A stretch of 64,000 nucleotides of DNA from an uncultured Rhodospirillaceae bacterium (GCA_964557415.1 CAZLBB010000007.1:9064-73063), one strand, 5' to 3'. Shown: positions 32,968-45,585, counted from the first letter of the stretch. Translations and numbers: made by a program. Notes: generated by a model from the sequence alone, not told the origin.

Positions 32968-34821
32968 TCAGTTGCCTGCCGCCGCCTTGCGCTGCGCCAG
33001 GGTCGCTTCCTTCTTCGGATCGACCCACCACGCGTCGAACTGCGCCCCCTGCTTTGGCGTCACCGCAGGCCGCCCGAACTTGTCCCAGTAGGCCAGCCGG
33101 TCGACGTTGGTGTGGAAATTGGGGATGACCCAGAAGCCCCATTGCAGCACGCGGTCGAGCGCGCGTGTGCGCGCCACCAGTGCCTGGCGGTCGGGCGCGG
33201 CGATCAGCTTCTCGATCAGCTCGTCGATCGCTTTGCTCTTGATGCCGACCGAGTTGCGGCTGCCCTTCTGGTCGGCGGCGGCGGTGCTCCAGAAGTCGCG
33301 CTGCTCGTTGCCCGGCGATTCCGACTGGCCCCAGACCTCGACCGTCATGTCGAAATCGAACTCGTCCGAACGGCGCTGGTATTGCGCCGTGTCGACCGTG
33401 CGCACCGACGCCTCGATGCCCAGCCGCTCCAGGTTTTTCACGAACGGCAGCACGATGCGCTCGAATTGCGGGTTGTTGAGCAGAATCTCGAAGCGCATCG
33501 GCTCCCCGGTCCTGTCGTTGACCAGCTTGCCGCCCTTGATCGACCAGCCCGCCTCCTTCAAGAGCTGCGCGCCCTTCATCAGATTGCCGCGGATGTTGCC
33601 CGACCCGTCGGTGCGCGGCGGGTTGTATTCCTGCGCGAACGCTTCGTCCGGGATCTGGCCGCGCAGCGGTTCCAGCAGCTTCAGCTCCTCCGGCCCGGGC
33701 AGGCCCTTGGCCTCGAGCTCGGAATTGCCGAAATAGCTGCGCGTGCGCGTATACTGCTCGTAGAACAGGGTCCTGTTCGACCATTCGAAATCGAAGGCGA
33801 AGCCGAGCGCCTCGCGCACCTTGCGGTCCTGAAAGATCGGGCGCCGCACGTTGAAGGCGAAGCCCTGCATGCCCTGCGTGCGGCTGTTCTTCAGCGCCTC
33901 CTTGACGATCACGCCGGCCTTGACCGCCGGCACGTCGTAGCCGGTGGCCCATTCCTTGGCCGAGTTCTCGACCCGGAAGTCGAACGCGCCGGCCTTGAAC
34001 GCCTCCAGCGCGACCGTGGCGTCGCGGTAGTAGTCGTAGCGGATCGCGTCGAAGTTCTCGCGCCCGATGTTCACCGCCAGGTCCTTGCCCCAGTAGTCGG
34101 GCACGCGGCGATAGGTGATCGCACGACCCGGATCGATGCTGTCTATCTTGTAGGCGGCGCTGCCGAGCGGCGGCTCGAGCGTCGTCTTCTCGAAGTCGCG
34201 CGTCTCCCAGTAATGCTTGGGCAGCACTGGCAGCTGGCCGAGGATCAGCGGCAATTCGTGGTTCTCGCCCGGCTTGAAGCCGAATTTCACCGTGCGCTCG
34301 CCCGTCTTCGCCACCTGGTCGACATGCTGGTAGTAGAGCCGGTAGAAGGGCGCGCCCTTCTCGCGCAGGATGTTGAAGGTGAAGATCACGTCGTCGACCG
34401 TGATCGGCTTGCCGTCGTGCCAGCGGGCGTTCGGCCGCAGCGTGAAGGCGACCCAGGACCGGTCGGCCGGCGTCTCGATCTTCTCCGCCAGCAGGCCGTA
34501 CTGGCTGAACGGCTCGTCGGCCGAGCCCGCCATCAGCGAATCGTAGATCTGCCCCAGGCCGGCAGCGGCGCGGCCCTTGATGACGAAGCCGTTCAGCGTG
34601 TCGAAGCCGCCGATCGCCGCCAGCTTGACCTCGCCGCCCTTGGGTGCGTTCGGGCTGACGTAGTCGAAGTGCTTGAAGTCGTCCTTGTATTTCGGCGTGC
34701 CGTGCATGGCGATGCCCAGCCCGTTGACCGGCTGATCGGCCAGCGCGCCCGCCGCGGGCGCGCCCGCGAGCAGCGCGGACGCAAGCAGGCGGAAGAGATG
34801 GGGCCGCATTCCCTGGCGCAT
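32968..34821 (-). CDS. ABC transporter substrate-binding protein, family 5 (oligopeptide/microcin-C YejA-like)
   Basis: 617 aa with a signal peptide and the SBP_bac_5 fold. No permease or ATPase genes are adjacent. Confidence 0.8.
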   Translation of the reverse strand: MRQGMRPHLFRLLASALLAGAPAAGALADQPVNGLGIAMHGTPKYKDDFKHFDYVSPNAPKGGEVKLAAIGGFDTLNGFVIKGRAAAGLGQIYDSLMAGSADEPFSQYGLLAEKIETPADRSWVAFTLRPNARWHDGKPITVDDVIFTFNILREKGAPFYRLYYQHVDQVAKTGERTVKFGFKPGENHELPLILGQLPVLPKHYWETRDFEKTTLEPPLGSAAYKIDSIDPGRAITYRRVPDYWGKDLAVNIGRENFDAIRYDYYRDATVALEAFKAGAFDFRVENSAKEWATGYDVPAVKAGVIVKEALKNSRTQGMQGFAFNVRRPIFQDRKVREALGFAFDFEWSNRTLFYEQYTRTRSYFGNSELEAKGLPGPEELKLLEPLRGQIPDEAFAQEYNPPRTDGSGNIRGNLMKGAQLLKEAGWSIKGGKLVNDRTGEPMRFEILLNNPQFERIVLPFVKNLERLGIEASVRTVDTAQYQRRSDEFDFDMTVEVWGQSESPGNEQRDFWSTAAADQKGSRNSVGIKSKAIDELIEKLIAAPDRQALVARTRALDRVLQWGFWVIPNFHTNVDRLAYWDKFGRPAVTPKQGAQFDAWWVDPKKEATLAQRKAAAGN

Positions 34822-39169: not shown

Positions 39170-39666
39170 CTAAGGCTCCGCGGGGGCCTTTTCCATGAAT
39201 ATGCTCAGCGGGTCGGGCCGGTACGCGCCGAAGGGCCCGCGCGTGCGGAAGCCGAAGCGGCGGCAGAGCGCGAGGGCGGCGACGTTCCCGGGGCCGGTTT
39301 CCAGCGGGATCACCTGCACCCGCTCGCGCCGCGCCGCCTCATCGATGGCGCCGAGGAGCGCGCGGCCGACGCCCATCCCGCGCGCGGCCGCCGTCACGAT
39401 CATGCGCTTGACCTCGGCATCGCCGGCTCGGCCCCGCAGCAACCCGGCACAGCCGGCCACGCACCCATCAGCCGCGCGACAAAGAAGCGGGTCCCGGGCC
39501 GGTCAAGCGCGTCGACGCCGATCAGATGGTTGCTCCACGGCGGGTAGAGCCCCATGGAGAATGCGTCGGATTCCCGCAGCAGGGATTCGATCTCGGCCTG
39601 CCGCGGCGGCTCTTCGGCAATCATCACCATCGGGCTAGACTGGCATTGGGTCAGGCCCTCGCGCAA
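39170..39666 (-). pseudogene. GNAT-family N-acetyltransferase interrupted by a 1-nt frameshift near 39455
   Basis: The N-terminal half lies in the frame of 39400..39666 and the C-terminal half (AGCAGLLRGRAGDAEVKRMIVTAAARGMGVGRALL, GNAT motif A) in the frame of 39170..39460. Joining them requires a 1-nt shift within CGGCTGATGGG. It could equally be a sequencing error. Confidence 0.55.
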
Positions 39667-39917
39667 TCCAGAGCCGCATATCGCGTCTCGCCGTCCTGTG
39701 CGCCCCCGGTGCGCGGCTGGCGCTGTTCGTCCCGGCGCTGCGCCATCTCGGCACGGCGCGCACGGGCGCCTATTTCTCGACCTCGCCCTTCCTCGGCGCG
39801 GCCCTCTCCACCCCGCTTCTGGGCGAACAGCCGACGGTGCGGCTCGCCCATGCGCGGCTGTGCCATGCGCACCCGCACGCGCCGGACATGCATCACCAGC
39901 ACCGGCACTGACGCCGG

Positions 39918-40895
39918 TCAGGCGCGCCTGCCGCGGAAGGAGCGATAGAGCGCCTCGAACAGCTCGGCGCCGCGCTTGATGCGCTCCGTGTCGTCGGCTG
40001 CGCTCTCGCAGATGCCGGCGACGAGCTGCAGCACGCCGGCCGCCTCGGGCCGCGCGTACTTGCCGTCCTTCAGGTCGATGTCGTGCACGATCTCGGCGAG
40101 CTGGTGCAGGCCTGGATCGTTCGCGACAAAGCGCTGCTGCAACACCTCGAACGTGCAGCGGTCGCCTTCGTGCGTGAACTCGGCATCGAACATGTCGAAG
40201 CGCAGCTCGCCGGCGCGCGGGCTGTAGTCCTTCTCGGAGACGAACTTGAAGCGCGCCCGGGGATCGATGAAGCGCTTGATCAGCCAGGCGGTGGCGATGC
40301 GGTCGACGAACACCTGCGACCGGGTCACCCAGACCCGGCCGCTCGGCCGTGCCCTCTCCGCGCGCGCTTCGGCCTGGTGCTGCGACGCGGGCTTGAGCCG
40401 CGCCTCCAGGCCCGACAGCGCCCCTTCGGCCGGCTCGCGGCCGGCCGCGCCGAAGAAATCAAGCGCCGCCACCTGATCGAAGCGACGCCTGAGCCGCCGC
40501 GTCGCCGCCTCCATCTCGGACGGCTGCTCGGCCAGCTCGTCGAGAATCCGGCGCGCTTCCTCGGTCACGCCGGCGTAGTCGGCATCGCGCGCGGCATCGA
40601 ACAGGCCGCGCAGACCCGCGTCGTCCAGGCCGTGCACGAAGCGCGCCTCGCACAGCACCGCCTCGCCGCCGCCCTGCTCGATCTCGCGACAGACCCAGCG
40701 CAGGTCCTCGTGCGCCTGGTCCGACCGCGGCAGAACGTAGGCCGCGTTCTTGACCGCTACGGCGCCCAGCGCCTGCAGCCGGCGCCAGATCTTGACCCGC
40801 AGGTAGGCCGGCTTCGGCGGGATGTTGTGCAGCAGCATCAGCCAGGACATCGGCGCGGGCGCGGCCATAGCGTCTCCTTGCGGCCAATATAACAA
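39918..40895 (-). CDS. chrB: ChrB-family chromate-resistance protein (regulator/sensor; two ChrB domains)
   Basis: N-terminal ChrB domain (LLHNIPPKPAYLRVKIWRRLQALGAVAVKNAAYVLP) and C-terminal ChrB_C-like domain (VWVTRSQVFVDRIATAWLIKRFIDP). Confidence 0.75.
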   Translation of the reverse strand: MLYWPQGDAMAAPAPMSWLMLLHNIPPKPAYLRVKIWRRLQALGAVAVKNAAYVLPRSDQAHEDLRWVCREIEQGGGEAVLCEARFVHGLDDAGLRGLFDAARDADYAGVTEEARRILDELAEQPSEMEAATRRLRRRFDQVAALDFFGAAGREPAEGALSGLEARLKPASQHQAEARAERARPSGRVWVTRSQVFVDRIATAWLIKRFIDPRARFKFVSEKDYSPRAGELRFDMFDAEFTHEGDRCTFEVLQQRFVANDPGLHQLAEIVHDIDLKDGKYARPEAAGVLQLVAGICESAADDTERIKRGAELFEALYRSFRGRRA

Positions 40896-41012
40896 CTGCT
40901 AGCAACAAAGCCATTAAGAAAGAAACAGTTGCAACATCGATTGTCCAGGTATATAGAGCAGATGTATCATTGAATGCAACAGTGATGATCATGAAGCCAT
41001 CGAGGGCCGCAC
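40896..41012. promoter_or_regulatory. AT-rich divergent intergenic region between chrB and the DUF1127 genes. It carries three GCAAC half-sites, including a perfect GTTGCAAC palindrome.
   Basis: Seen directly in the sequence. This is a marked GC drop in a ~68% GC genome. GCAAC occurs at 40902, 40931 (GTTGCAAC at 40928-40935) and 40976. TATATAGAG lies at about 40950. The function is inferred. Confidence 0.3.
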
Positions 41013-41186
41013 ATGCCCGGCAAGCTCATGGAGTTGCTCGTCATTCTTCACCGCGTTCTGGCGCGCCGCCGGCATCGGCGGGCCCTCGCCGGGCTGTCGA
41101 GGCTGGGCGAGCGCACGCTGCGCGACCTGGGCATCGATCCCGATGCGCTGCGCGCAGAAATGTCGAAGCCGTCATGGCGACCCTGA
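41013..41186 (+). CDS. DUF1127-family small protein (57 aa; 52 aa if it starts at the ATG at 41028)
   Basis: Not in the ORF track (<60 aa). The translation ...RRRHRRALAGLSRLGERTLRDLGIDPDALRAEMSKPSWRP matches the DUF1127 C-terminal signature (basic stretch, DxGLxR, KPFW/KPSW). GAGGG lies 6 nt before the ATG at 41013. Confidence 0.6.
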   Translation: MPGKLMELLVILHRVLARRRHRRALAGLSRLGERTLRDLGIDPDALRAEMSKPSWRP

Positions 41187-41220
41187 CCATGTCGAAGACG
41201 CAAGCACGGGAGATTCGATC

Positions 41221-41436
41221 ATGCTGATGGACGTTCTCTATGCCACGTTTGCGCGCTGCGCCGCCCGCAACCGCGCAGCGCGATCGGGCGGCCTGGCCGG
41301 CGTGCTGCTGTGCTGGACCGAGCGGGCGCGTCAGCGCAACGCGTTGGCGACGCTGGACGCCGACGGGCGGCGCGATATCGGCCTCGCCGCGGGGGCGATC
41401 GACCGCGAGGTCGCCAAGCCGTTCTGGCGCCCATAG
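41221..41436 (+). CDS. DUF1127-family small protein (71 aa), second tandem copy
   Basis: The translation MLMDVLYATFARCAARNRAARSGG ... RARQRNALATLDADGRRDIGLAAGAIDREVAKPFWRP. GGGAG lies 7 nt before the ATG. The ORF-track entry 41143..41436 is an over-extension. Confidence 0.6.
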   Translation: MLMDVLYATFARCAARNRAARSGGLAGVLLCWTERARQRNALATLDADGRRDIGLAAGAIDREVAKPFWRP

Positions 41437-41445
41437 GGGACGGCC

Positions 41446-42390
41446 ATGAGCTACCGCGTCGCACCGCTCGACGTCACCCCGGCCTCGCTCGACGGCCTGT
41501 CCGAGCGGCTGATCGTCAGCCACTACGAGAACAACTACGGCGGCGCCGTGCGCCGATTGAACGCGATCGCCGCCGAACTCGCGCGGCTGGACCCGCAGGC
41601 GGCGCCCGGCTTCCAACTCAACGGGCTCAAGCGCGAGGAGCTGATCGCCGCCAACTCGATGCTCCTGCACGAGCTCTACTTCGCGAGCCTGGGCGGCGGC
41701 AGCGGCGATCCGCCGGCGGCGCTGGCGGCGGCGCTTGAGCGCGACTTCGGCAGCGTCGCGCGCTGGCGCGCGGAATTCAGCGCGATGGGCAAGGCGCTGG
41801 GCGGTGGCTCGGGCTGGGTGCTGCTCGCGTGGTCGTCGCGCGACCGGCGCCTGGTGAACCAATGGGCCGCCGACCACACGCACACGCTGGCGGGCGCCCG
41901 GCCGGTCCTCGCGCTCGACATGTACGAGCATGCCTATCACCTCGATTTCGGCGCCCGCGCCGGCGCCTATGTCGACGCGTTCATTCGCAATATCGACTGG
42001 GCTTCGGTCGAGCGGCGCGTTCAGGCCGCGGCCGGCATCGCCGACGAGCCGCGACGCCATGACGCGGAATCGATCGCACCCGAGGATCTCAGTGCGTCGC
42101 TGGCCGCCGGCCGGGCGCCGCTCATCCTCGACGTGCGCCGGCGCCGGGCCTTCGATGCCGGCGCCGACATGATCCAGGGCGCCGCTTGGCGCCAGCCGGA
42201 GATCGTGGCCGACTGGGCCGACACGCTGCCGCGCGGCCGCGAGGTCGTCGTCTACTGCGTCTACGGCCACAACGTCAGCCACGACACGGTGACGGCCCTG
42301 CGTGCCAAAGGCATCGATGCCCGCGCGCTCCGCGGCGGTATCGCGGCCTGGCATGCGATCGGCGGGCCGGTAGGCGGCAAAACCGCGTGA
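41446..42390 (+). CDS. Fe/Mn superoxide-dismutase-like domain fused to a C-terminal rhodanese (sulfurtransferase) domain. The SOD-like part resembles ChrC.
   Basis: SOD C-terminal motifs are conserved (GSGWVLLAW; DMYEHAYHLDFG ... FIRNIDW). In the N-terminal motif, VSHYENNY replaces the canonical FHHxKHHxxY. The rhodanese domain has the active-site Cys loop VVVYCVYGHNVS. Confidence 0.75.
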   Translation: MSYRVAPLDVTPASLDGLSERLIVSHYENNYGGAVRRLNAIAAELARLDPQAAPGFQLNGLKREELIAANSMLLHELYFASLGGGSGDPPAALAAALERDFGSVARWRAEFSAMGKALGGGSGWVLLAWSSRDRRLVNQWAADHTHTLAGARPVLALDMYEHAYHLDFGARAGAYVDAFIRNIDWASVERRVQAAAGIADEPRRHDAESIAPEDLSASLAAGRAPLILDVRRRRAFDAGADMIQGAAWRQPEIVADWADTLPRGREVVVYCVYGHNVSHDTVTALRAKGIDARALRGGIAAWHAIGGPVGGKTA

Positions 42391-42433
42391 TCGGCCGCGC
42401 GACAGCCAATATGGTCCTTGACGGGGGAACGCC

Positions 42434-42928
42434 ATGAAATGGATCACGCGCGAGCGGCCGAAGATCGATCGCATCGCTTGTCCCTGGCTGGTCGCGCGCT
42501 TCATCGACCGCGCGCCGGAATTCCTCTACGTGCCCGCGGGCGCGGTGATGCGCGAGGCAACGGCGCAGAGCGCCATTCCCTACGACGTACCCGAGGTCGA
42601 GCTCAGCCATGTCGGCGAGAGATGCAGCTTCGACGCGTTCCTGTCGAAATACGGTCTCGACGAGCCGGCGCTGCGTCAGCTCGCGACGATCGTGCGCGGC
42701 GCCGATACCGGGCGGCCCGATCTCACCGCGCAGTCGGCCGGGCTGCTCGCGGTTTCGCTCGGCCTCTCGCGAGTCTTCAGGGACGATCACCAGATGCTGG
42801 CGCACGGCATGGTGCTCTACGACGCGCTCTATGCCTGGTGCCGCGAGGCGCAGGGCGAGACGCATGGCTGGCCGCCGGCCGATTGGCCGAGAGCCGTCCT
42901 CGATGACGCGGAGCCGCCACGCGTATGA
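42434..42928 (+). CDS. ChrB C-terminal-domain-like protein (standalone)
   Basis: The translation ERPKIDRIACPWLVARFIDRAPEFLYV parallels the C-terminal domain of the chrB product. Its stop overlaps the chrA start (ATGA). Confidence 0.6.
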   Translation: MKWITRERPKIDRIACPWLVARFIDRAPEFLYVPAGAVMREATAQSAIPYDVPEVELSHVGERCSFDAFLSKYGLDEPALRQLATIVRGADTGRPDLTAQSAGLLAVSLGLSRVFRDDHQMLAHGMVLYDALYAWCREAQGETHGWPPADWPRAVLDDAEPPRV

Positions 42929-44289
42929 CGCATGCCGCCGCACCGGTCCCCTTTCGCGATGCGCTGCGCACCTGGGCCAAGATCGGGCTCCTGAGCTTCG
43001 GCGGGCCGGCGGGACAGATCGCCACCATGCACCGCATCCTGGTCGAGGAGAAGCGCTGGATCGGCGAAGCGCGGTTCCTGCACGCGCTCAACTACTGCAT
43101 GCTGCTGCCGGGGCCCGAGGCGACGCAACTCGCCGCCTATATCGGCTGGCTGCTGCACCGCACGCTCGGCGGCATCGTCGCCGGCGTGCTGTTCGTGCTG
43201 CCGGGCGCCTTGGTGATGGTGGCGTTGAGCGCGCTTTACGCCGGCTATCGCGATCTGTCCGCGGTCGACGCCGTGTTCTTCGGCATCAAGGCGGCGGTGC
43301 TGGCGGTGGTGGTCGAGGCTGTCCTCCGCATAGGCCGGCGCGCGCTCGGCAATCCCGCGCGCGTGGCGCTCGCGGCGCTGGCGTTCGTCGGCATCTTCCT
43401 GTTCGCCGTGCCGTTCCCGCTGATCGTGCTGGCGGCGGGGATGGCCGGCCTGGTCGGCGCGCGGGTCCGGCCGGACTGGTTCGCCAACGGCGTCGGACAT
43501 GGTTCCGCCAAGGGCAAGCCCGTGCTCGACGCGCTGATCGACGAGAGGCTGCTGACCCATGTCGATCCCACGCCGGGCCGCGCGCTCGGCGTGCTGCTGG
43601 CCTGGGGGGCCATCTGGGCCGCTCCGGTCGCGGTTGCGGGCCTCGTGCTCGGATCGAGCCACGTGCTGGTGGCCGAGGGCCTGTTCTTCTCCAAGGTCGC
43701 GGTGGTCACCTTCGGCGGCGCCTACGCGGTGCTCGCCTACGTCGCGCAGCAGGCGGTCGAGCACTATGCCTGGATCGGAGCCGGCGAGATGCTGGACGGT
43801 CTCGGCATGGCCGAGACCACGCCCGGGCCGCTGATCCTGGTGCTGACCTTCATCGGCTACTTGGCCGCCTACCGGCTCGGCGCGCCGCTCGATCCGGCTC
43901 TGGCCGGCTTGCTGGGAGCGGCCCTGACCACCTGGGTGACGTTCGTTCCCAGCTTCCTGTTCATCTTCCTCGGCGCGCCTTATGTCGAGCGGCTGCGCGG
44001 CAACCCGGCCGCGGCGGGGGCGCTGTCGGCGATCACGGCCGCCGTGGTCGGCGTGATCCTCAACCTCGCCGTCTGGTTCGCCCTGCACGTGGTGTTCCGC
44101 GACCACGTGCCCTGGCGCTTCGCCGGGATGCAGGTCGACCTCCCGGTCGCGTCCTCGCTCGACCTGCCGGCCCTGGTGCTCGCAGGCGGCGCGATGCTGG
44201 CCATGCTGCGTTTCAAGCTCGGCATGATCCCGGTCCTGGCCGGGGCGGCGGCACTCGGTCTCGGCTGGCGCTATGTCACAGGGACTTGA
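42925..44289 (+). CDS. chrA: Chromate ion transporter ChrA (long form, two CHR domains)
   Basis: 454 aa. The translation IGLLSFGGPAGQIATMHRILVEEKRWI ... GPEATQLAAYIGW, with the repeat VAVVTFGGAYAVLAYVAQQ ... TPGPLILVLTFIGY, gives the tandem CHR-family signature. Confidence 0.85.
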   Translation: MTHAAAPVPFRDALRTWAKIGLLSFGGPAGQIATMHRILVEEKRWIGEARFLHALNYCMLLPGPEATQLAAYIGWLLHRTLGGIVAGVLFVLPGALVMVALSALYAGYRDLSAVDAVFFGIKAAVLAVVVEAVLRIGRRALGNPARVALAALAFVGIFLFAVPFPLIVLAAGMAGLVGARVRPDWFANGVGHGSAKGKPVLDALIDERLLTHVDPTPGRALGVLLAWGAIWAAPVAVAGLVLGSSHVLVAEGLFFSKVAVVTFGGAYAVLAYVAQQAVEHYAWIGAGEMLDGLGMAETTPGPLILVLTFIGYLAAYRLGAPLDPALAGLLGAALTTWVTFVPSFLFIFLGAPYVERLRGNPAAAGALSAITAAVVGVILNLAVWFALHVVFRDHVPWRFAGMQVDLPVASSLDLPALVLAGGAMLAMLRFKLGMIPVLAGAAALGLGWRYVTGT

Positions 44290-44436
44290 AGATATCCGAA
44301 AGGCGGATCGCGATTCCCCCTTAACTCGCGCGACCGTTTTGTGCCATTGTGAAATAAAAAATGCCACGGTGATGTAAAGAACGATCCCGGGCCGGGTGCG
44401 CCGGCCGGGCGCGAGAGGGCAACCCGAGGAGGAAAC

Positions 44437-45585
44437 ATGAGCGAGATTTCGAAGAAACCCGACGTGCAGGTCGACAAGGCCGCGACCCGCCGCAAGTTCC
44501 TGGTCGGTGCCGGCGCCGGCGCGGCCGCCGTCGCCACGCTCGCGACACCCAGCGTGTCGCGCGCGCAGACGACGACCCTGAAGATGCAGACCTCGTGGCC
44601 GGCGTCGGACATCTTCCAGGAAATGGCCGCCGACTACTGCGACCGCGTGAACGCGATGGCGGGCGGCAGGCTCAAGGTCGACCTGCTGACCGGCGGCGCC
44701 GTGGTGCATCCGTTCAGCGTGCAGGACGCGGTCCATACCGGCGCGCTCGACGCAGCCCATACCGTCACCGTCTACTGGTACGGCAAGCACAAGGCCGCGT
44801 CGCTGTTCGGCACCGGGCCGGTGTTCGGCTTCAACGCCGAGCAGGGTCTGGGCTGGATCCACAAGGGCGGCGGGCAGGAGCTGTTCCAGGAGCTGCTCGA
44901 CAACATCCTCAAGATCAACATCGTCAGCTTCTTCGCCATGCCGATGCCGACCCAGCCGCTCGGCTGGTTCAAGAAGCCGATCAAGACGTCTGCTGAGCTG
45001 AAGGGCCTGAAGTACCGCACCGTGGGCTTGGCGGCCGACCTGTTCCAGGCGATGGGTGCGGCCGTGGCGCAGCTCCCCGGCGGCGAGATCGTGCCGGCGA
45101 TGGAGCGCGGCGTCATCGACGCGTTCGAGTTCAACAACCCGACCTCGGATCGCCGCTTCGGGGCGCAGAACGTGGCCAAGAACTACATGCTGGGCTCGTA
45201 CCATCAGGCAACCGAGTATTTCGAGCTGATGTTCAACAAGACCAAGTTCAACGCGCTGCCCAAGGAACACCAGGCGATCCTGCGCTACGGCGCGGAGGCC
45301 GCCTCCTCGGCCAACTACTGGAAGGCCATGGACGTCTACTCCAAGGACCTGCAGGAGCTGCGCGAGAAGGAGAAGGTCACGGTCATCCGCACGCCGAAGG
45401 AGGTGTTCGAGGCGCAGATCAAGGCCTGGGACGGCCTGATCGACAAGCTCGGCGCCGATCCCTTCATGAAGAAGGTGATGGAGTCGCAGAAGGCCTGGAC
45501 CAAGCGCGTCGTGTACTACGAAATGCTCAACGCGGCCGACTATCAGACCGCGTATGAGCATCACTTCGGCAAGCTCGGTCTGTAG
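44437..45585 (+). CDS. TRAP transporter substrate-binding protein (DctP family), Tat-type signal
   Basis: RRKFLVGAGAGAAAVATLA twin-arginine signal plus the DctP fold. GAGGAGG lies 6 nt upstream of the ATG. Confidence 0.85.
   Translation: MSEISKKPDVQVDKAATRRKFLVGAGAGAAAVATLATPSVSRAQTTTLKMQTSWPASDIFQEMAADYCDRVNAMAGGRLKVDLLTGGAVVHPFSVQDAVHTGALDAAHTVTVYWYGKHKAASLFGTGPVFGFNAEQGLGWIHKGGGQELFQELLDNILKINIVSFFAMPMPTQPLGWFKKPIKTSAELKGLKYRTVGLAADLFQAMGAAVAQLPGGEIVPAMERGVIDAFEFNNPTSDRRFGAQNVAKNYMLGSYHQATEYFELMFNKTKFNALPKEHQAILRYGAEAASSANYWKAMDVYSKDLQELREKEKVTVIRTPKEVFEAQIKAWDGLIDKLGADPFMKKVMESQKAWTKRVVYYEMLNAADYQTAYEHHFGKLGL

Follow-up and report, generated by a model that had tools for sequence, protein, structure and literature searches.

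Tandem DUF1127 small-protein genes in an alphaproteobacterial chr operon and their possible link to ChrB_C-type chromate-sensing domains

We analysed a 64,000-nucleotide (nt) stretch of DNA from an uncultured Rhodospirillaceae bacterium (GCA_964557415.1, CAZLBB010000007.1:9064-73063; hereafter the window). Two tandem genes for DUF1127 mini-proteins, which we call DUF1127-a and DUF1127-b (a and b for short), lie within its chromate resistance (chr) cluster. An earlier description made from the sequence alone (the sequence-only reading) had placed the pair between the regulator gene chrB and a superoxide dismutase (SOD)-like gene, and the flanks are as claimed, with matches to ChrB_N and ChrB_C on one side and to Sod_Fe_C on the other. 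All findings reported here are comparative-genomic and were obtained by sequence comparison. The two genes and their translation signals, the latter read directly from the sequence, are as follows.

41013 to 41186, plus strand: DUF1127-a, 57 amino acids (aa), MPGKLMELLVILHRVLARRRHRRALAGLSRLGERTLRDLGIDPDALRAEMSKPSWRP, 19.3% Arg, PF06568 match
41221 to 41436, plus strand: DUF1127-b, 71 aa, MLMDVLYATFARCAARNRAARSGGLAGVLLCWTERARQRNALATLDADGRRDIGLAAGAIDREVAKPFWRP, 15.5% Arg (counted from the sequence), PF06568 match
41002 to 41006, plus strand: Shine-Dalgarno site GAGGG of DUF1127-a, 6-nt spacer to ATG
41208 to 41212, plus strand: Shine-Dalgarno site GGGAG of DUF1127-b, 8-nt spacer to ATG

The proposal of two tandem DUF1127 mini-proteins is borne out by matches to PF06568, by profile alignment to fused DUF1127 domains and by signals of selection. 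PF06568 (Pfam, now named YjiS-like) has a gathering score of 23.3 bits. In the hidden Markov model (HMM) search with this family, which the sequence-only reading had suggested, DUF1127-b scored above that threshold (24.1 bits, E 3e-5, residues 32-60) and DUF1127-a fell 0.4 bit under it (22.9 bits, E 6.9e-5). P0011, an orthologue of a from another assembly, scores 27.4 bits. When aligned by hhalign to a profile of the DUF1127 tails of ChrB_C::DUF1127 fusion proteins (described below), b gave a probability of 97.5% and a gave 96.8% (E 2.5e-10), the match of a being restricted to the DUF1127 domain proper. No NCBIfam model matches either protein. The signature motifs that had been noticed at the ends of the translations are present in both a and b: RRRHRRAL and RARQRNAL, DLGI and DIGL, KPSWRP and KPFWRP, respectively. 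Both proteins show the family traits of a small helical protein with at least about 14% Arg, in which D[IL]G[ILV] and, at the C-terminus, KPxW(R) come after an Arg-rich helix, and R, R, L, A, D, G, E, K, P, W and R are invariant in the DUF1127 alignment. DUF1127-a is divergent, since its helix 1 lacks the usual Trp and the alignment places a 3-residue insertion ahead of DLGI. No other DUF1127 open reading frame (ORF) was found in the 64-kb window with our own DUF1127 HMM and motif pattern.

Both ribosome-binding sequences had been named correctly, as had the 6-nt spacer of GAGGG; the spacer of GGGAG is one nucleotide longer than the seven previously given. DUF1127-a had been reported as shorter than 60 aa and missing from the ORF list, and its absence is explained by the 60-aa length limit of that list alone. 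Translation of b most plausibly starts at ATG 41221. A longer in-frame ATG lies at 41143, and the stretch 41143-41220 has no coding signature (G+C content, GC, by codon position 0.63/0.54/0.58).

Codon composition and conservation make it very probable that a and b are genuine small-protein genes. GC by codon position is 0.74/0.52/0.81 in a and 0.73/0.59/0.89 (frame +2) in b. The neighbouring chrB (0.74/0.47/0.92), the fused chrC-chrE gene (chrCE; 0.74/0.53/0.90) and a gene encoding a ChrB_C-only protein (0.71/0.50/0.84) have similar third-position values (0.84-0.92, compared with 0.81 and 0.89 for a and b). A gene caller independently annotated both genes on an identical Logan assembly contig (L001). 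The same arrangement, with chrB divergent from a and b, occurs in a second genome, represented by one 1.2-kb contig (L086), which encodes a ChrB 84% identical and a DUF1127-a 86% identical to those of the window. Between the two copies of a there are 15.3 synonymous and 13.7 non-synonymous differences, giving a ratio of non-synonymous to synonymous substitution rates (dN/dS) of 0.29, and the differences are concentrated at third codon positions (5/7/17). For chrB, dN/dS is 0.23 in the same genome pair. Judging from these substitutions, DUF1127-a is under purifying selection.

The alternative is that a and b are chance open frames in the GC-rich 5' leader of the chr operon. Points in its favour, which count against gene status, are that both ORFs are short, that a lies under the Pfam cut-off and that the two assemblies do not share the start codon of a. 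ATG 41013 and ATG 41028 read ACG and CTG in L086, where a begins nine codons later, so the first ~10 residues of the protein are variable. Chance frames would leave unexplained two independent Pfam matches side by side, codon-position GC like that of real genes, substitutions that pile up at third positions with a dN/dS of 0.29, a Shine-Dalgarno site before each ORF, and the more than 100 fused tails to which b is homologous. We regard this alternative as extremely improbable. In L086:999-1169 (plus strand), the conserved N-terminus of b (MLLNALRASFTRR) and its DUF1127 domain (LLAWTERARARRALAELD) lie in different reading frames, and an alternative start of b overlaps the stop codon of a (ATGA). 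This break reflects either an indel introduced by assembly at the end of the contig, or a genuine frameshift or ATGA-overlapping start. A structured RNA or small RNA (sRNA) in place of the ORFs was ruled out: Rfam gave no match at E ≤ 1 in 39500-45000 except two at chance level and none at gathering score in the whole window, and the RNA fold of 40975-41240 is no better than those of shuffled sequences (z 0.05).

DUF1127 domains also occur fused to ChrB_C. In Dongia deserti, a 191-aa protein encoded after chrB-chrA (L022, 8422-8997, plus strand) carries ChrB_C at residues 3-135 and DUF1127 at residues 149-180. Among the best 120 relatives of the D. deserti fusion P0015, taken as 90%-identity clusters, 102 have PF09828 and PF06568 in one chain. 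These proteins (P0015-P0125, L091:5418-6020 and L174:7001-7582) are 180-211 aa long, range from 100% down to 50% identity to the D. deserti query, and are labelled in databases only as 'ChrB domain-containing protein' or 'hypothetical protein'. When 1.84 billion representatives clustered at 50% identity were searched exhaustively with HMMER, essentially one full-length fusion representative was returned, P0135, with both domains confirmed. This indicates that the fusion is one compact clade in a ChrB_C superfamily of more than 14,000 representatives.

Three of the five genomic contexts of the fusion that we inspected are chr clusters. The gene order is chrB-chrA-fusion in L022, fusion-chrCE-ChrB_C-only-chrA in L091/L092, where the 14-kb contig has no ChrB_N gene, and [ChrB_C-only <- chrCE] <-> [chrB -> fusion] in L174/L175. 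In L091 the fusion gene occupies the operon position of the window's a and b, ahead of chrCE, and the L091 chrCE is 73% identical to the window's, the highest value of any locus we examined. In the fusions, the ChrB_C part is closer to the ChrB_C-only subfamily (53-56% identity) than to the C-terminal domain of ChrB (38-39%); the window's ChrB_C-only protein is 56% identical to the ChrB_C part of P0015 and 53% identical to that of the L091 fusion. Besides ChrB_N and DUF1127, ChrB_C has other partners:

L173:7001-7864 (Spirosoma oryzicola plasmid NZ_CP089545.1), P0142 and P0155: ChrB_C with a C-terminal AraC-type helix-turn-helix (HTH), in Bacteroidota
P0141, P0138, L021 and L029: rhodanese and ChrB_C, in either order
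P0179: ChrB_C with LMWPc (low-molecular-weight phosphatase / ArsC-like)

The protein with the AraC-type HTH is a probable one-component regulator in Bacteroidota. The variety of partners suggests that ChrB_C is a portable module, joined to nucleic-acid-binding and enzyme-like domains. A further protein was seen about 4.6 kb from an orphan fusion gene: L090:12133-12753 (minus strand) encodes 206 aa with three DUF1127 repeats (PF06568 105 bits, 3 stretches), which indicates that the DUF1127 domain can work as multiple copies in one protein.

DUF1127-b looks like a detached tail of such a fusion. Its residues 1-70 align end to end with residues 131-199 of the fusion P0098 at 51% identity, and the alignment begins in the last ChrB_C helix (VLYDALY-DWARKA in the fusion, MLMDVLYATFARCA in b). 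When the N-terminal 31 residues of b were compared with the collinear segment of last helix and linker, 2 of 1000 shuffles reached the score, by maximum and by mean alike. Four free DUF1127 controls were not significant on the maximum in the same test. The position-unconstrained comparison of the N-terminus of b with whole fusions was not significant (36/500 shuffles), and the suggestion of fission rests on about 30 residues. A and b are not themselves fusions: they are separate ORFs with their own ribosome-binding sites, and ChrB_C is encoded separately at 42434-42928. A ChrB_C remnant upstream of b was considered and rejected; the BLASTP alignment extends into the in-frame stretch 41143-41220, and 541/1000 shuffles equal its score.

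A comparable free gene is found in a Dongiaceae metagenome-assembled genome (MAG; L014, 4597-4968, minus strand), inside the operon between chrCE and the ChrB_C-only gene. Its 72-aa DUF1127 product consists of MKW followed by ALYGWAREHE..., the latter matching residues 131-193 of P0117 at 62% identity. It appears as if a fusion had lost residues 4-130, the ChrB_C part, by in-frame deletion; given the MAG source, an assembly artefact is possible.

AlphaFold2 was applied to the fusion and to b. The fusion model (56 sequences) has a predicted local distance difference test score (pLDDT) of 84 and a predicted template modelling score (pTM) of 0.68, with helices in the tail at 146-163, 167-172 and 177-184 (pLDDT ~73-85). 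Modelled alone (pLDDT 71), b is predicted to form the same three helices, at 25-44, 47-52 and 57-65, plus an N-terminal helix. Sequence searches found no relative with a solved structure, fold searches none that was informative, and the fold search with the b model returned no HTH or other significant match. These blanks agree with the absence of any experimental DUF1127 structure (PMC12501420).

The surrounding chr genes and the promoter region are listed below.

39918 to 40868, minus strand: chrB, full-length chromate-responsive regulator, divergent from the DUF1127 genes (Pfam ChrB_C 8.2e-47, ChrB_N 2e-16; 316-aa gene on L001)
40869 to 41012, no strand: AT-rich divergent intergenic region, 144 base pairs, 44% GC against 69% overall, with conserved blocks and repeats
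40941 to 40970, plus strand: sigma-70-like promoter candidate TTGTCC-18-TATCAT, directed toward DUF1127-a; its ATGTATCAT block is kept in L086
41446 to 42390, plus strand: ChrC-ChrE fusion (SOD-like and rhodanese), 314 aa (Pfam Sod_Fe_C 3.6e-24, Rhodanese 3.1e-8; NCBIfam rhodan_ChrE 1.8e-28)
42434 to 42928, plus strand: ChrB_C-only protein, 164 aa, proposed DUF1127 partner (Pfam ChrB_C 1.3e-49)
42925 to 44289, plus strand: chrA, chromate efflux transporter, last operon gene (Pfam Chromate_transp 7.3e-77, two stretches)

Past chrA lies an unrelated TRAP transporter. The order a, b, chrC-chrE, ChrB_C-only and chrA is maintained on one strand, with gaps of 34 nt (a-b), 9 nt (b-chrCE) and 43 nt (chrCE-ChrB_C) and a 4-nt overlap of the ChrB_C-only gene and chrA. 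The promoter-like site at 40941-40970 is the sole one in 40700-41600 (mean of shuffles 0.0), and no plus-strand terminator-like site was found within the same interval. From this layout, a and b are probably the first two cistrons of the chr operon. In the 314-aa ChrC-ChrE fusion, only the C-terminal Fe/Mn-SOD domain of the chrC part was detected, and the same fusion is common in the alphaproteobacterial loci we fetched.

The intergenic region contains repeated TGCAACA / ACAGTTGCA elements, arranged as direct repeats and as an inverted repeat (40925-40933 / 40975-40983). Three TGCAACA-type elements lie in 40888-40992, and the inverted pair flanks the promoter-like site on both sides. Within the same interval, the blocks TATAACAAyTGCTAGC, GAAAGAAACAGTTGCA and TATAGA.CA.ATGTATCAT are common to the window and L086. 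In Ochrobactrum tritici, ChrB represses the chr promoter via an AT-rich inverted repeat overlapping the -10 box; the N-terminal half of ChrB is assigned to the binding of DNA, and its C-terminal half holds residues needed for chromate induction (PMC3817168). The TGCAACA / ACAGTTGCA elements are candidate ChrB operators. In 44 of 80 genome loci (L006-L085), fetched with the window's ChrB at 49-60% identity, a different motif, ATGATACAAGTGTTGCAT, which also has palindromic variants (GATACAAGTGTATC), is found ~50 nt upstream of where chrB starts. It ranks as a strong ChrB operator candidate for Alphaproteobacteria and related bacteria, and it is unlike the inverted repeat published for O. tritici.

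Taking the fusions and the operon together, our best explanation, which we hold tentatively and at a little short of even odds, is that a and b are co-induced by chromate and act as small partners of ChrB_C-type sensor domains, tuning the response. Transcription of a, b, chrC-chrE, the ChrB_C-only gene and chrA would start from the AT-rich region shared with divergent chrB. Once chromate relieves ChrB repression, the two small proteins would be made together with the efflux and detoxification proteins; by analogy with O. tritici, we infer this co-induction with the efflux pump via ChrB. By binding to a chromate-sensing domain of the ChrB_C type, the DUF1127 proteins would then adjust the response to chromate. 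Their partner would be the ChrB_C-only paralogue three genes downstream, and possibly ChrB itself as well, in parallel with PhoR, the phosphate sensor kinase that free DUF1127 proteins bind and hold in check. That a and b have some functional link to ChrB_C proteins is rather likely from the comparative evidence, and a protein-protein mechanism is a possibility that we put somewhat below the full explanation. Such a partnership is favoured because of the covalent fusion, the repeated operon linkage and a free protein with fusion-derived residues. That ChrB controls the pair, that the small proteins physically contact ChrB_C, and which way they shift the response are all things that we infer.

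Several observations weigh against this explanation. The association is rare: when all ORFs of at least 25 aa in the 80 ChrB-anchored genome loci were scanned with our DUF1127 HMM and motif pattern, only two loci, L014 and L022, had a DUF1127 gene, and none was found in 80 metagenome loci anchored on ChrB_C-only genes. Acetobacteraceae-type chr loci with the same layout as the window manage without DUF1127. Two of the five fusion contexts, the orphans L088/L089 and L090, lie outside chr clusters. A functional link follows from a domain fusion, but the parts need not touch once they have split, and the AraC-type HTH partner of ChrB_C suits a nucleic-acid-binding output role for DUF1127 as well as docking. 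The ATGATACAAGTGTTGCAT motif is not present in the window within 3 mismatches, where half-site resemblances alone were seen, so ChrB control of this promoter is assumed.

A general DUF1127-chrB association was thus rejected on the counts of 2/80 and 0/80; the usual alphaproteobacterial layout is [ChrB_C-only <- chrCE] <-> chrB -> chrA. As far as the sampled genomes indicate, the DUF1127-chr link is restricted to a few alphaproteobacterial lineages. The window carries no rRNA; its best chr relatives point to a source of Rhodospirillales-like type within the Alphaproteobacteria. Given the fusion in 102 of 120 clusters and the chr-cluster contexts, this rare link is not accidental as judged by comparison. 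A metagenome scan with DUF1127-a produced 600 pattern matches and 0 confirmed ones, and a word-indexed protein search recovered only one protein related to a and eight related to b. The free relatives nearest to b lie outside chr clusters, each divergent from a transcription-factor gene, ArsR/HTH_20 twice and GntR/MocR twice, one of them identified by eye (L002:5208-6222, L004:3551-4657, L005:339-2056 and L087:1-525). The divergence of the window's pair from chrB parallels this regulator-divergent layout.

Two modes of action have been described for DUF1127 proteins: RNA binding and turnover, for CcaF1 (PMC8034643), and binding to sensor kinases, for Agrobacterium small DUF1127 proteins (SDPs) and E. 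coli YjiS with PhoR (PMC12501420) and for Salmonella YjiS with SsrA (PMC11707872). The background given in the sequence-only reading, RNA binding and phosphate or carbon regulation, agrees with the literature (PMC8034643, PMC12501420) and lacked the 2025 evidence that these proteins also bind sensor proteins. The first mode supplies a serious rival, though in our estimate an unlikely one: the Arg-rich helices would bind, stabilise or process chr mRNA, or stress sRNAs and mRNAs, under chromate, and the ChrB_C link would reflect co-regulation. CcaF1, at 71 aa the size of b, is an RNA binder with effects on how sRNAs mature and how stable mRNAs are (PMC8034643); Arg makes up 19% of a and 15.5% of b; and the predicted helices fit the two-helix, Arg-exposed picture (PMC12501420). 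However, chrCE follows b after 9 nt with no sRNA of the Cuckoo/CcsR type or Rfam match downstream, RNA binding was not seen for Salmonella YjiS (PMC11707872), and mere co-regulation leaves a covalent fusion to a sensor domain in 102 clusters unexplained.

Less probable again is a split one-component regulator, in which DUF1127 is the nucleic-acid-binding output of the ChrB_C sensor and the ChrB_C-only protein and b (and a) rebuild it non-covalently to act on DNA or RNA of the chr locus. This would fit the AraC-type HTH found in the same C-terminal place in Bacteroidota-type proteins (Spirosoma plasmid, P0142, P0155), the L091 fusion that heads a chrCE-ChrB_C-chrA operon on a contig free of ChrB_N, and the last ChrB_C helix and linker retained by b. 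It sits poorly with the fusion of ChrB_C to rhodanese and LMWPc, which do not bind DNA, with full-length chrB adjoining the fusion in L022 and L174, with the lack of any HTH among fold matches to the b model, and with a literature in which we found no report of DNA binding by any DUF1127 protein. The pair might instead be passengers, two generic DUF1127 genes (encoding, for example, modulators of sensors such as PhoR) that by chance landed downstream of the chr promoter and ahead of chrCE and do nothing specific to chromate; we find this doubtful, slightly more so than the split regulator. DUF1127 is missing from most chr clusters, b's nearest free relatives adjoin unrelated regulators, and DUF1127 proteins of different species are interchangeable for a phosphate phenotype (PMC12501420). 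Passengers would hardly show three kinds of linkage to ChrB_C or chr genes (operon head, operon interior and fused) or the specific homology of b to the fusion tail including ChrB_C-derived residues, and a second genome whose ChrB is 84% identical keeps the pair, with a under purifying selection.

A broader reading, which we hold to be unlikely, makes DUF1127 a dedicated partner or output module of oxyanion sensors. Its fusion to ChrB_C would then convert a chromate-binding domain into a one-component regulator acting on nucleic acid or on a further protein, and the window would be the split form, in which b, still bearing the last ChrB_C helix, re-docks on the ChrB_C-only protein. If this were true, these proteins and the PhoR-binding DUF1127 proteins would form a general class of small adaptors for the sensing of phosphate- and chromate-type anions, and the DUF1127 family would gain its first ligand-linked partner with a soluble, tractable domain.

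Comparison with known systems places the novelty in the chr operon with DUF1127 cistrons and in the split/fused relationship; a and b themselves are new members of a known family that holds more than 17,000 proteins (Grützner et al. 2021). The ChrB_C::DUF1127 fusions (Dongia deserti P0015/P0022; metagenomic P0098 and P0102) share with the window the DUF1127 domain type and the chr-cluster context, whereas in the window DUF1127 forms two free proteins (57 and 71 aa) and the ChrB_C paralogue is separate, three cistrons downstream. In our literature search, no paper mentions these fusions and no function is reported for them; nor did any paper combine DUF1127 with chromate or YjiS with ChrB. A. 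tumefaciens SDP1-3 and E. coli and Salmonella YjiS are, like a and b, small members of the Pfam family with Arg-rich helices and with DIGL and KPxW motifs, and by analogy may serve as a model of action, the binding of a sensor protein for a tetrahedral oxyanion (PMC12501420, PMC11707872). In contrast to the window's pair, their genes lie outside any resistance operon and their partner is a membrane histidine kinase, not soluble ChrB_C; a has the 3-residue insertion and is without the conserved Trp.

Rhodobacter sphaeroides CcaF1 (RSP_6037) is of the same family and, at 71 aa, of the same length as b, and it too is encoded by the first gene of a stress-induced transcript (PMC8034643). It is followed by four CcsR/Cuckoo sRNAs that are matured with its help, whereas in the window protein genes follow and no Rfam match at E ≤ 1 lies between 41436 and chrCE. 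Classical chr determinants include TnOtChr chrBACF (O. tritici), chrBACEF (Cupriavidus metallidurans) and the chromate resistance determinant (CRD) of Arthrobacter FB24 with its ChrB-Cterm genes. Together with the window they have chrB, chrA, SOD-like chrC, rhodanese chrE, stand-alone ChrB_C and an AT-rich promoter/operator by chrB (PMC3817168, PMC2751784); stand-alone ChrB_C genes are known to be chromate-induced in Arthrobacter (PMC2751784). None of those described has DUF1127, and the window differs further in its fused chrC-chrE and in an operon that is divergent from chrB instead of headed by it.

These comparisons bear on how DUF1127 proteins act, which is disputed between RNA binding (CcaF1) and sensor kinase binding (PhoR, SsrA). 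The recurrent ChrB_C fusion and the free, apparently fusion-derived b in a chr operon name a concrete soluble candidate partner, so the RNA-versus-protein question can be tested directly in an inducible system that is simple and whose ligand, chromate, is known. A fusion host, Dongia deserti, is already in culture. For chromate resistance and biosensors, whose regulation is so far known at the level of ChrB only, the locus adds unrecognised small components and a new ChrB_C architecture.

Two minor observations were made elsewhere in the window. At 33017-33104 (minus strand) ARAGORN calls an 88-nt tRNA-Arg(GCG) with the anticodon at position 39, which is probably a false positive because the whole-window Rfam gathering scan holds no tRNA and the site lies inside long ORFs. 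At ~39170-39630 (minus strand; L001:2110-2570), between a NUDIX gene and chrB, are two small adjacent called genes, encoding 77 and 76 aa; a GNAT acetyltransferase match was obtained for the first, and the pair may be a split or frameshifted acetyltransferase gene.

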